From NCBI GenBank assembly GCA_041736465.1, contig JBGSTO010000706.1, forward strand, positions 6,588 through 70,587: a stretch of DNA of 64,000 bases, in the 5' to 3' direction. Position numbers and translations under genes: made by a program. The DNA is from Anaerolineales bacterium. GTDB lineage: Bacteria > Chloroflexota > Anaerolineae > Anaerolineales > UBA4823. Position 1 is the stretch's first letter, and each line of letters starts with the position of its first letter. The notes beneath the pieces were generated by a model. It did not search any database and had not been told where the DNA came from. It worked only from the letters and a program-made list of their open reading frames with translations. Positions 32,909 through 35,973 of the stretch are shown here, in pieces.

Positions 32909-33292
32909 CTAGAAAGGATTTGCATGCCCGTCATCATAGTCGACGTCGTCTGCCTCGTCGTCTTCGTAATCCAGCTCTAGCTCAACCTCTTCGTCATCCA
33001 GCCGCAGCCAAAGGATAAGAATCTGCCCTTCATCCACGTCCAGGGTACGAGCAGCTACAATCGGCGCCTCCTGCTGCAAACCATCTTCGGTGCGGTATTC
33101 CAGGTGGATCGGCTGGTGATTGCGCCAGGCGCGATGGCAGCGCTCGACTAAAGAGGGGCCGTTATACGTGCGTAAACGGGTTACGGCGATATCATTAAGG
33201 ATTGGCCCTTCACTCAGACCCAGCGCCCAGCCGTCTGGTACAGCTTCGAAGGTGGGCGGAGGCCCCTCGATAATTGTAATTTTATCTTCCAT
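32909..33292 (-). CDS. Small, strongly acidic hypothetical protein
   Basis: ATG 33292 is preceded by GGAGG with a 6-nt spacer. It is 127 aa. The C-terminus is LDDEEVELELDYEDDEADDVDYDDGHANPF. I recognise no domain. Confidence 0.55.
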   Translation of the reverse strand: MEDKITIIEGPPPTFEAVPDGWALGLSEGPILNDIAVTRLRTYNGPSLVERCHRAWRNHQPIHLEYRTEDGLQQEAPIVAARTLDVDEGQILILWLRLDDEEVELELDYEDDEADDVDYDDGHANPF

Positions 33293-33326
33293 AGCAACCT
33301 CCAAGTTAGACAAATCATACCATGAA

Positions 33327-33860
33327 TCATACAGAGTAACACCTGATGCTTATGATAGGTTCGTTAAGAAGTGCCGCTGTGGGAGAAACTTCGCCTGAAG
33401 GATAGAGCCGTTCGCATGCGGCAGCACCTACCACGGCGCCTCCCGGTGAACCAATCCCACCTGCAGCTCCTGAAATCGTCCCTGATCCATGGCCATGCGC
33501 CACCTCCCCTGGCTGGTCGACAGACATCGCCTGTACCATCCTGGCCAGATTCAGCAGCTCTGTCACCCCTGCCAACAGGGTTTCGCTGTCGCTTTCGAGC
33601 GCAATTCCCTGCTCAGTTGTATAATTTTCTATAGGAACAGCCCAGGACCAGGGAATGCCGCCTGGTTGCCCATACGGAGGCATCACGATCCAGCGCCGCT
33701 CTGAATAAGCTGCATGCCCGGCCTGGCGCAGCACCTTTACAATTTGCCCATTCAGGGGATGGTGGGCGTGGATGACCCGCACGAATCCGATAGGCCGCGA
33801 CTCGTTGGGTGTTTTTTTGTTGATTGCAACCCGATCAGATACATTGATCCTTCTGGGCAT
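33327..33860 (-). CDS. DUF5372 (Y4bD/Y4pK)-like protein, a possible remnant of a recombinase-associated mobile element
   Basis: VRVIHAHHPLNGQIVKVLRQ...ERRWIVMPPYGQPGGIPWSWAVP matches my recollection of the DUF5372 pattern (HPxHPLxGQ...RRW...G...IPxxW). Its 5' end overlaps the toxin-tip motif on the other strand, so the true start is unclear. Confidence 0.4.
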   Translation of the reverse strand: MPRRINVSDRVAINKKTPNESRPIGFVRVIHAHHPLNGQIVKVLRQAGHAAYSERRWIVMPPYGQPGGIPWSWAVPIENYTTEQGIALESDSETLLAGVTELLNLARMVQAMSVDQPGEVAHGHGSGTISGAAGGIGSPGGAVVGAAACERLYPSGEVSPTAALLNEPIISIRCYSV

Positions 33861-34472
33861 TGTTGGGGAGCGTTCAGTTGGGTTCGCAACATCCCAAGTT
33901 ATAACACGACCTGTAATAACCTGGATATGGCATATGAGATCTTATATCATCCAAAAGCCAGTTCACGTGATTAAGTATTGGCAGGCGCATATATTGCCGC
34001 TGAGGTGGCTGCGCGTGCTACTCCCGTAGTGACTGCAGTTGTTGTAGGTTGTATCGAATTTGCTCCTGGGTGTGACGACGTGGTAATTGCGGCGGGAGAT
34101 GCAGTAATAAATCTGGCAGATGCTGCCAAAGGCCATGAGCAAGCACCTGAAGAAGGCTTACCTTCGCCGCCTGCACCTACGATGCCAGGGCCACCCTCAT
34201 ATCCATCTGCACCTCCAGGTTCTACAGGCGAATATGTGTCTCCCTATGGTTATCCAAACGATCCAACAAAATCTCCTGCTGATGGATTCAATTGGGAAGG
34301 ACGCGAAGACTCAACTCCTGGGAGTAGGCAATGAAATTGGTATAACAAAGAAACCGAAGAGTGGCTAAATTATGAACCTGATTCTCCATCTCACGGGTCC
34401 CACTTCGATTATGGAGATCCTTGGCACAGAAGATACCGTATATTCCCTGATGGGAGCATGGAACCAAAATGA
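33801..34472 (+). pseudogene. Orphan RHS/YD-type polymorphic-toxin C-terminal cassette with two in-frame stops
   Basis: A single reading frame carries ...FVDCNPIRYIDPSGH (the RHS core-end motif), a linker, a Pro-rich stretch, and then NWYNKETEEWLNYEPDSPSHGSHFDYGDPWHRRYRIFPDGSMEPK. The frame is interrupted by TAA at 33972-33974 and TGA at 34332-34334. No RHS/YD core lies upstream. The terminal TGA overlaps the ATG of the next ORF (ATGA). Confidence 0.55.
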
Positions 34473-35110
34473 GTCTTAGAATGAAGCCCTTTCATTTGGT
34501 GCAAAAAGAGGCAATTGAGTATATACAACAAGAGCTTTCGCTAGGGTGGAGCTTTTCCCAAAAGCTCCTTTGGGAGTTGGATTTTAGTAAAGGAGATGTG
34601 ATCACTTTTCTGCCAAGCTTCCTATCTGAATCCGACATATTGAACTTAAGAATCAGCGTTTTTAAAACCGCACAAATGAATTTTCGAGAAGACATTGAAA
34701 ATTTTATAGCTAAACGCGTGTATACATATTTAGCAAACATTCCTAACAGTTTTTTCATAACAGAAACTTTAATGTCAAAAGAGCCAGTTCCACCTAAAAG
34801 GCCGTTGAGAAACTATTTCTTACATGCCGCTCGCATCTACCTCTTTGCGGACAAATCTGGAAATACAGATGAGATAAAGTCGGTATTAATCCGTAGCCGA
34901 GACTACCCATTAATTACATGCCTAACGTCACTGTTGGATACAAAGTTACTGCTCAGGCCTGGAGATACCGTGAGCGATCAGCTTTTGCAAGAATTAGCAA
35001 AACGAACAGAGGCATTAATTATTGGGGCATATGATGCTGAAGCATTCATTATTTGGCGAAAGACGCACAGTGTCATCTCAGACTACCATATAAAAGGCGA
35101 ATCGAACTAA
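34469..35110 (+). CDS. Putative cognate immunity protein
   Basis: 213 aa, visibly AT-rich compared with its flanks. Its ATG 34469 overlaps the toxin-frame stop (ATGA). No recognisable domain. The assignment rests on position only. Confidence 0.5.
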   Translation: MSLRMKPFHLVQKEAIEYIQQELSLGWSFSQKLLWELDFSKGDVITFLPSFLSESDILNLRISVFKTAQMNFREDIENFIAKRVYTYLANIPNSFFITETLMSKEPVPPKRPLRNYFLHAARIYLFADKSGNTDEIKSVLIRSRDYPLITCLTSLLDTKLLLRPGDTVSDQLLQELAKRTEALIIGAYDAEAFIIWRKTHSVISDYHIKGESN

Positions 35111-35114
35111 GAAC

Positions 35115-35470
35115 TCATCCGAAACTAGCGATGTCGGCCAAGAAGCTGACACAAGCGAAAAGAACAAGGGAGAGCCAGTTGGATGATTTCTCGCACCAGC
35201 GGGTACGGATACTTCGTCTTCCAGCCAGCCAACCCAAGGTGCGCTCGACGACCCACCGTCTGGCCGGGAACTGGGTTTCGCACTGGATTGGGCAAGGGTC
35301 CGGTGGTTCGCCCCGCACCCCACCTTCCTACCACGCCTTTCGCTACTCACACGGGCCCTTCCCGAATGACATACATCATGATTCCGGTTGTAACCACCAA
35401 GTTGACACTACAGCCAAAGCGGGCTGCAGCGGCGCCGGCGCCATGGTCGCCAGCCCGAACAACGACAGTG
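35115..35470 (-). mobile_element. Degraded IS4/IS5-family (DDE_Tnp_1) transposase remnant
   Basis: The C-terminal motif ARRWVVERTLGWLAGRRSIRTRWCEKSSNWLSLVLFA is typical of IS5-family transposases. The upstream pieces (ERRGRKVG; TTGIMMYVI) lie in two other frames, so at least two frameshifts are present. The N-terminal catalytic part is absent. Confidence 0.6.
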
Positions 35471-35589
35471 CGTACGACCTTCACGCGAATAAGCCACCAG
35501 TCGAATGTATTTTTACGTACTGCTATGCAATCTTCGATAAGCATGAACATTTTCACGACGAAGGTATAATTGGTGCTGGAGAGGTAACG

Positions 35590-35973
35590 ATGCACAAACT
35601 GGTCATCCTGATCGAATCACTGCCGGATCAATCCGCCTTCGATGAATCCTGGCCTCAATTTTTACACGCCGCGGAGGGTATGCCCGGCTTGCTGAGCGAG
35701 TCCACCAGCCGGGTGGACACTTTTCTGTTTGGCAGTTATGCGGTGAGCATGGTGCATGAGTTGCATTTTGCCTCTGTTGAGGAGGCCAGGCAGGCGATGG
35801 CCTCACCGCAGGGCCGGTTGGCGGGACGCCTGCTGCAAGCGATGACCGGCGGCAAGGTTACCCTGTTCCTGGCGGATCATAAAGAAGATAACCTGGAAAA
35901 TATCCTTAAACACGGCGCCTCGACCCAGCCCGATACGCCCGCCGGCACAGATGCAGCCGAGGCCAGCGGCTAA
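35590..35973 (+). CDS. EthD-family (TIGR02118-like) protein
   Basis: ATG 35590 follows GGAGAGG. MHKLVILIESLPDQSAFDESWPQFLH...PGL...HELHFASVEEARQAMASPQG fits the EthD pattern. It is the only credible part of track ORF 35053..35973. Confidence 0.6.
   Translation: MHKLVILIESLPDQSAFDESWPQFLHAAEGMPGLLSESTSRVDTFLFGSYAVSMVHELHFASVEEARQAMASPQGRLAGRLLQAMTGGKVTLFLADHKEDNLENILKHGASTQPDTPAGTDAAEASG

Follow-up and report, generated by a model that had tools for sequence, protein, structure and literature searches.

A decayed RHS-type toxin tip with a predicted immunity gene at the end of a serine recombinase element remnant in an Anaerolineales bacterium

Orphan rhs-CT/rhsI and cdiA-CT/cdiI modules have been described together with a model of C-terminal displacement (Poole et al., 2011; PMC3150448). 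A comparable locus was found in a stretch of 64,000 nucleotides (hereafter the window) from an Anaerolineales bacterium (Chloroflexota; assembly GCA_041736465.1, contig JBGSTO010000706.1, positions 6,588 to 70,587), which belongs to contig C401 of a metagenome-assembled genome of 733 contigs and 6.3 Mb with a G + C content of 58%. It shares with the described modules a toxin tip that lacks a start codon and begins at the core-end motif, a tightly coupled immunity gene that has outlasted its toxin, a G + C content below that of the host, and debris of insertion sequences (IS). It differs from them in that no stretch of core homology lies upstream of the tip, the tip appears dead, and the cassette lies between two housekeeping genes, at a great distance from any rhs gene; moreover, the 5' edge of the tip is the end of an element of the large serine recombinase type. 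Taken together, the island formed by these sequences is most likely the wreck of an rhs toxin–immunity module.

The described toxins closest to the tip are those of the Ntox37 family, which was predicted to be all-beta with a conserved E, [KR], and Hx[DH], and was listed on RHS proteins, Chloroflexi included, with Imm32 as immunity protein (Zhang et al., 2012; PMC3482391). The tip of the window resembles these toxins as a small C-terminal domain, predicted to be all-beta, of an RHS protein in the Chloroflexota with a conserved Glu, Arg/Lys, and His-x-Asp, but its clade lies below the Pfam cut-off of PF15535 and its partner belongs to an undescribed alpha/beta family of ~200 amino acids instead of Imm32. 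Most other Ntox37 tips found here precede an undescribed Cys-rich open reading frame (ORF) of ~90 amino acids.

The toxin tip and its Ntox37-like domain

The tip begins at the motif NPIRYIDPSGH (33828–33860, forward strand), which aligns with the core ends of locus L009 and of the proteins P0012 and P0013 and, as a core-end motif of the PxxxxDPxG type, directly precedes the variable tip. A first-pass annotation made from the DNA alone had recognized an orphan RHS-type tip at this motif without a YD-repeat core upstream, and the alignment with intact RHS proteins bears it out. A six-frame regular expression search of the 6.3-Mb genome returned five matches of the motif; since the other four all lie in RHS contexts (contigs C87, C126, and C316), the match in the window is not due to chance. 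Neither a YD-repeat shell nor an Rhs_assc_core domain was found upstream in the same gene in the window, and the tip is therefore an orphan. The genome does encode RHS proteins: RHS genes and orphan arrays occur on C87, C316, and C126, with RHS repeats confined to C87, and none of the RHS fragments on these three contigs carries the tip of the window. The RHS gene on C87 is split across two frames, and C316:1970–6642 holds an array of RHS core-end fragments without start codons, each with ~66 codons of core followed by a small ORF.

An intact counterpart is present in L009, a locus of an Anaerolineales metagenome-assembled genome, which encodes a 364-aa orphan RHS protein (L009:8910–10004) with a match to Rhs_assc_core (TIGR03696, 45.3 bits). 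The last ~100 residues of this protein are ~80% identical to the frame in the window, and a region search with it yielded 11 proteins. The alignment of P0013 with the frame in the window covers everything from the motif onward and takes in the Cys-rich and hydrophobic linker as well as the end. The whole frame of ~215 codons (33828–34472, forward strand) is therefore one former gene, which also aligns end to end with L009:8910–10004. At L009:10857–13759, downstream of the intact module, lie an IS110-family transposase gene and, behind it, a second orphan RHS tip. An HExxH zincin-like domain is indicated in this tip by a sub-threshold Pfam match, and a 222-aa ORF of its own follows the tip.

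The frame in the window is interrupted by two in-frame stop codons, TAA at 33972–33974 and TGA at 34332–34334; the frameshift assumed in the first-pass annotation was not recovered, as the tip occupies a single frame throughout. A compact C-terminal domain lies at 34335–34457, directly behind the second stop, or ends at 34469 if the frame is followed up to the start of the next gene. Intact homologs have sense codons at both stop positions. Another assembly of the same locus (L015, SRR28170474) has a sense codon at the position of the 33972 stop, which is the sole mismatch in 3,023 bases and may represent a recent polymorphism or an assembly error. In addition, the G-P-H-W-D-Y motif is altered in the window by the replacements of Pro by Ser and of Trp by Phe; among the 11 homologs the Trp is invariant and the Pro nearly so. 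Because it has no start codon, no core, and no delivery shell, contains two stops, and carries altered near-invariant residues, the tip is by all indications in its sequence a pseudogene, and the earlier idea of a stored, reusable toxin module was abandoned.

The family of the toxin domain, which the first-pass annotation could not name, became apparent from its homologs. PF15535 (Ntox37) is matched by 8 of the 11 aligned homologs, with a best E-value of 3.2e-10. The closest intact homolog reaches E 0.98 and 10.5 bits against this model (cut-off 27.8) and has no Pfam or NCBIfam match above threshold. In the toxin tree, the window tip falls inside a clade with 100/100 support within the family that contains the Ntox37 matches. 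For the intact domain of L009, AlphaFold2 (AF2) predicted an all-beta structure with six strands and no helix (predicted local distance difference test [pLDDT] 85.6, predicted template modeling score [pTM] 0.76). In the homolog alignment, E54 is nearly invariant (at least 90% of the sequences) and H68-W-D70, R80, and K90 are invariant; the domain in the window retains the His and Asp, with Phe in place of the invariant Trp. As judged from these homologs, the last ~90 residues of the tip (34200–34469, forward strand, broken by the TGA at 34332) form a domain of a divergent Ntox37 subfamily. A nuclease activity of the domain would be a guess drawn from its set of residues and its smallness, and one that is more apt to be wrong than right. 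In the PDB searches, a weak match to the CdiA-CT of E. cloacae (4ntq_A; E 7, template modeling score 0.35–0.40) is a lead only.

The immunity gene and its family

The tip is followed by an intact gene for a protein of 213 amino acids (34469–35110, forward strand), which starts within the stop codon of the toxin frame. This ATGA overlap at 34469–34472 confirms the translationally coupled immunity gene that had been proposed, and the same overlap precedes P0002, the protein encoded after the intact toxin in L009. P0002 is 63% identical to the 213-aa protein; in a search of 5.8 billion proteins, it was the single full-length relative, and a distant one. The frame remained open in 0 of 20,000 shuffles of the AT-rich stretch.

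A scan with the tip alignment, covering one genome per species, detected 43 loci in many phyla plus three metagenome loci. The ORFs directly downstream of these tips form two families, one Cys-rich with ~90 amino acids (29 loci) and one with ~200 amino acids (10 loci). The latter comprises the proteins of the window, L009, Roseiflexus, two Actinomycetota, and several Alphaproteobacteria, so that full-length members follow Ntox37 tips in three phyla (Chloroflexota, Actinomycetota, and Alphaproteobacteria); partial N-termini of the family follow tips in L035 and L036. The 213-aa ORF thus is conserved beside homologous tips at 10 full-length and two partial loci. With RHS proteins encoded elsewhere in the genome as well, neither of the two computational outcomes that would have spoken against the first-pass reading was obtained. 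Common to the family is a C-terminal SAYDxESFVVW motif. When the immunity class was mapped on the toxin tree, only four changes were needed, compared to a mean of 10.5 in shuffled data, and none of 500 shuffles matched this value.

Neither the 213-aa protein nor the 10 family members had a Pfam match, Imm32 (PF15566) included. The AF2 model of the 213-aa protein has good scores (pLDDT 83.6, pTM 0.81), and sequence and Foldseek searches of the PDB with the protein gave no significant match; the last ~13 residues are unconserved and of low model confidence. A scan of the genome and metagenome collections with the immunity alignment returned nothing, and the family emerged only from the ORFs downstream of the tips. 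Because members of this family directly follow Ntox37 tips at 10 loci in three phyla, the 213-aa gene is the predicted cognate immunity gene of the Ntox37 tip. Its protein presumably binds and neutralizes the toxin domain. We read the gene, whose frame is open, as still under selection, and it may have been retained because it still protects against neighbors that deliver this toxin. The uncharacterized Ntox37 domain is thereby paired with a new and widely distributed immunity family, and the pair is ready for biochemistry.

The ~90-aa family (29 loci within L041–L083, ~80–109 amino acids, no Pfam model) is a second candidate family of Ntox37 immunity proteins; its paired Cys motifs resemble a zinc ribbon. 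Among the other proteins retrieved, P0007 is a gene call in the wrong frame over another homologous toxin–immunity junction, and P0008 and P0009 were discarded as spurious matches of repeat proteins.

The recombinase element and the probable origin of the orphan tip

The left edge of the tip coincides with the end of a foreign element. An ORF of 177 codons on the reverse strand (33327–33860) is the remnant of the DUF5372-like first gene of an element whose complete form is found in the metagenome contig L084 (81.5% DNA identity). The element-derived DNA extends from ~33464 to 33833; the first nine codons of the ORF, its ATG included, are toxin-tip DNA. At 33819–33833 (forward strand) lies the right terminal half-site of the element, GTTGATTGCAACCCG, which forms an attR-like junction with the rhs core-end motif, and the same 15 bases are found at the right junction in L084. 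Identity between the window and L084 amounts to 92% in the 60 bp left of 33833 and to 54% in the 60 bp right of it. On the other side the homology ends at ~33464, so that the window retains the right ~370 bp of the element.

Four homologs of the 177-aa ORF were found, two of which (P0005 and P0006) are encoded directly upstream of a large serine recombinase gene. P0005, located in L084 and 78% identical to the 177-aa ORF, overlaps the start of the recombinase gene by 4 nt; the recombinase has 722 amino acids and consists of Resolvase, Recombinase, and Zn_ribbon_recom domains. L085 has the same gene layout as L084 with a partial recombinase. No homolog of the recombinase was found in the window or the whole genome. 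The label DUF5372-like, which the ORF had received in the first-pass annotation, holds in part. A direct Pfam match is lacking, as the ORF itself does not match DUF5372 (PF17342) and P0005 and P0006 align below the cut-off with 20 N-terminal positions only (E 0.11 and 0.031, respectively). A distant relation is nevertheless indicated by synteny, since the small ORFs upstream of recombinases with 37–45% identity from the phylum are true DUF5372 members in four of six cases.

In L084, the 2,705-bp element interrupts an rhs gene at the N-P codons of its core-end motif, and the other end of the element adjoins the sequence ...WDRYAYANNNP. When the flanks are rejoined, they form an uninterrupted rhs frame (...WDRYAYANNNPVMYTDPDGH... 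/ ...YAYANNNPVMYTDPDGH...). The attP site deduced from the ends, which were analyzed by hand, is an imperfect palindrome around CC with arms matching at 15 of 20 positions and GATTGCAAC-CCG-TTGCTATC at its center; a generic inverted-repeat search on L084 returned noise only. The junction reads ..FFVDC|NPIRYIDPSGH.. in the window, ..FFVDC|NPVMYTDPDGH.. in L084, and ..SFALG|NPVRYTDPSGH.. in L085, and thus the same joint of element end and core end stands beside three unrelated tips. The tips in L085 (190 amino acids; L085:238–810, reverse strand) and L084 (cut by the contig end; L084:1–200, reverse strand) bear no relation to Ntox37 and gave no Pfam match; a D...E-x-K pattern in the former suggests a restriction-endonuclease-like fold, and the latter shows an H-x-G-x-D pattern.

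Tn4451 with TnpX, Tn5397 with TndX, and SCCmec with CcrAB are elements moved by large serine recombinases. The L084-type element resembles them in the combination of Resolvase, Recombinase, and Zn-ribbon domains and in the absence of a target duplication, and it further shares with elements of this kind a short common core at the crossover, an imperfectly palindromic attP, and a small gene beside the recombinase gene that could encode a directionality factor. It differs in its target, the coding sequence of the rhs core end, and in its size of 2.7 kb without cargo. The best PDB match of the recombinase covers only the resolvase catalytic domain (E 9e-6). Recombinases ~40% identical to the L084 enzyme were also detected in 469 plasmid records of PLSDB (e.g., NZ_CP080528.1 and NZ_CP141049.1), mostly from rhizobia. 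They occupy up to 15 places per record and are multi-copy on rhizobial plasmids, which fits IS-like multi-copy modules of DUF5372 and recombinase genes; the identity of ~40% sets these modules apart from the L084 type.

From these observations, the following history is proposed. The frame at 33828–34472 would formerly have encoded the C-terminal tip of an Rhs/YD polymorphic toxin, composed of a hydrophobic linker and a small all-beta Ntox37 domain. An element with DUF5372 and large serine recombinase genes would have integrated site-specifically at the Asn-Pro codons of the core end, severing the tip from its RHS core and promoter. Next, the rhs core, the recombinase gene, and the 3' end of the DUF5372-like gene may have been lost to deletions, and an IS5-family element may have inserted at the stop codon of the immunity gene and later have been cut down to its last ~210 bp. 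The silenced tip would finally have accumulated the nonsense mutations and the substitutions at near-invariant residues. On this evidence, the tip probably was orphaned by site-specific insertion at the Asn-Pro codons and not by homologous displacement.

Several points weigh against this history or the identity of its parts. The window contains neither the recombinase gene nor the left junction, so that the course of events is read from other loci, and the complete rhs-inserted element is represented by one copy (L084) plus two right junctions. No further rhs-inserted copies were found in ~400 genomes of the class, ~400 genomes of the phylum, and IMG/VR; the recombinases detected in the phylum genomes do not exceed 45% identity, and no RHS motif lies near them. 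The similarity of the junctions is partly forced by the conserved core-end motif itself, and the second stop codon (34332) is seen in two assemblies whose independence is uncertain. A promoter and terminator scan revealed no site above chance that would point to expression of the immunity gene. The tip and its closest homologs remain below the Pfam cut-off for Ntox37, a family with no known activity, and sequence and Foldseek searches of the PDB with the toxin domain found nothing significant (best Foldseek E 1).

The first-pass annotation had favored displacement through homologous recombination at the core end, the classical C-terminal displacement, in which case the DUF5372-like ORF and the IS tail would be unrelated debris. 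Orphan modules of the displaced type do occur on C316 and in L009, where they keep 46–170 codons of core before the motif. Upstream of the Asn-Pro codons in the window, however, no core sequence remains, and for this reason the tip edge is unlike a product of homologous recombination. The break instead matches, to the base, the position of the 15 conserved terminal bases of the recombinase element, and in L084 such an element interrupts, at the same codons, an rhs frame that is otherwise perfect. We therefore consider homologous displacement unlikely. It draws some support from L117 (JGI 3300061641, 908 bp), whose RHS core fragment and different tip at the same site imply that rhs pieces recombine here.

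L117 is 91% identical to window positions 33293–33739, and it agrees with the window in the left deletion joint and in what remains of the 3' part of the DUF5372-like gene. Beyond the equivalent of window position 33739, L117 instead contains the RHS core fragment, which has ~115 codons and an intact core end (NPINFIDPSGM), and the other tip. The site is therefore a hotspot at which rhs fragments still turn over.

The tip and the immunity gene could also have been cargo of the recombinase element, which would then swap toxin tips by carrying new ones in frame into rhs genes, with the junction in the window representing an attP-like end of the element instead of an attR beside a resident tip. 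That the tip abuts the DUF5372-proximal end of the element at all three loci agrees with such a role. In L084, by contrast, the rhs core adjoins the 3' end of the recombinase gene, so that a cargo tip would have no place there, and rejoining the flanks gives an uninterrupted rhs frame. The elements of the window and L084 are ~80% identical, whereas their adjoining tips are unrelated, and no recombinase or DUF5372 gene was found near 45 other Ntox37 tips. Tip swapping as cargo is thus very improbable. Finally, a toxin frame that still functions by stop readthrough or internal restart, as its preservation over ~215 codons and the sense codon at one stop position in another assembly might suggest, is scarcely credible for a frame that lacks a start codon, an RHS delivery shell, and a promoter signal, has lost a near-invariant motif residue, and lies in a genome (6.3 Mb, 58% G + C) that otherwise uses standard stops, with TGA also terminating this toxin gene in the window and L009. 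Recoding of stop codons was ruled out, as TGA ends the same toxin gene.

The cassette as such is ordinary; a moderate degree of novelty attaches to the rhs-targeting element and the immunity family. New are the divergent Ntox37 clade, the undescribed immunity family that accompanies Ntox37, and an element with DUF5372 and serine recombinase genes that appears to target the rhs core end. A literature search found no report connecting serine recombinases with Rhs core ends, and to our knowledge the detachment and archiving of tips have so far been explained only by homologous recombination. In a broader and tentative generalization, which we regard as possible but doubtful, L084-type elements would be cargo-less and home to the coding sequence of rhs core ends, each integration orphaning a tip; a DUF5372 directionality factor would make excision re-attach the tip, and the ~200-aa family would be a new fold that neutralizes Ntox37. 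If this holds, the element would switch Rhs toxins on and off reversibly and, beside homologous displacement, would generate orphan tips in a site-specific manner, and its attachment at the rhs core end would explain orphans without core sequence. Orphan tips and spare immunity genes shape which bacteria coexist. The uncharacterized DUF5372 gains a context as partner of a large serine recombinase. By itself, the window holds modest biology, with a toxin that is dead, an immunity gene that probably protects, and scars of mobile elements.

Island borders, the IS5 remnant, and flanking genes

The DNA match to a genome of the same genus (G001) ends at 33365 and restarts at 35551, which delimits an inserted island of ~2.2 kb (33366–35550). 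The genes on both sides are adjacent and divergent in five other genera, where they are 86–262 bp apart, compared to 2,276 bp in the window. Except for the IS tail, the genes of the island have no homolog in 40 relatives or the rest of the genome. The borders taken from the relatives are nearly identical to the range of 33327–35600 given by the first-pass annotation, and all features it had named were located where it had placed them by ORF listing and three-frame translation. The low G + C content that it had ascribed to the island is confined to two parts, with 48% in the tip and 39% in the immunity gene, whereas the values of 57% for the DUF5372-like remnant and 59% for the IS tail are like that of the window (58%).

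The right edge of the immunity gene is marked by a remnant of an IS5-family element on the reverse strand (35107–35318), which comprises the last 67 codons of the transposase gene (ORF 35115–35318) and the IS terminus; in the terminus alignment, the latter overlaps the stop codon of the immunity gene. The tail is 60–67% identical to residues 215–281 of full copies with 281 amino acids on C39, C322, and C573 and matches PF13586 (E 0.002) and PF01609 (E 0.009) below the cut-off. The full-length copy on C39 has the DUF4096 and DDE_Tnp_1 domains typical of this IS5-family type, with which the remnant shares the RRWVVERT..W motif and the terminus. The remnant had been reported as a frameshifted IS5-family tail; its identity to the full copies speaks for this family, and the tail proved to be a single open piece (the last 67 of 281 codons) without a frameshift. 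As only the last 24% of the transposase gene is left in the window, in contrast to the full copies in the same genome, the remnant is immobile.

On the left, the island is flanked by a conserved core gene for an acidic protein of 134 amino acids (32909–33313, reverse strand), which was found in 12 of 13 relatives. On the right follows an EthD-like core gene (35590–35970, forward strand; TIGR02118, E 3.2e-6), which is conserved beside the 134-aa gene. The acidic protein was rejected as a member of the island, being encoded by a conserved core gene that is invariably paired divergently with the EthD-like gene, and a positional argument for this very acidic protein as a DNA mimic tied to mobile DNA is thereby lost. 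In G001, contig C32 (L033 and L034) shows a large inversion, of 33 kb or more, in comparison with the window and five other genera. No RHS, recombinase, or IS sequence was seen at the inversion junction, and one of the breakpoints lies in the same intergenic gap that is occupied by the island in the window.

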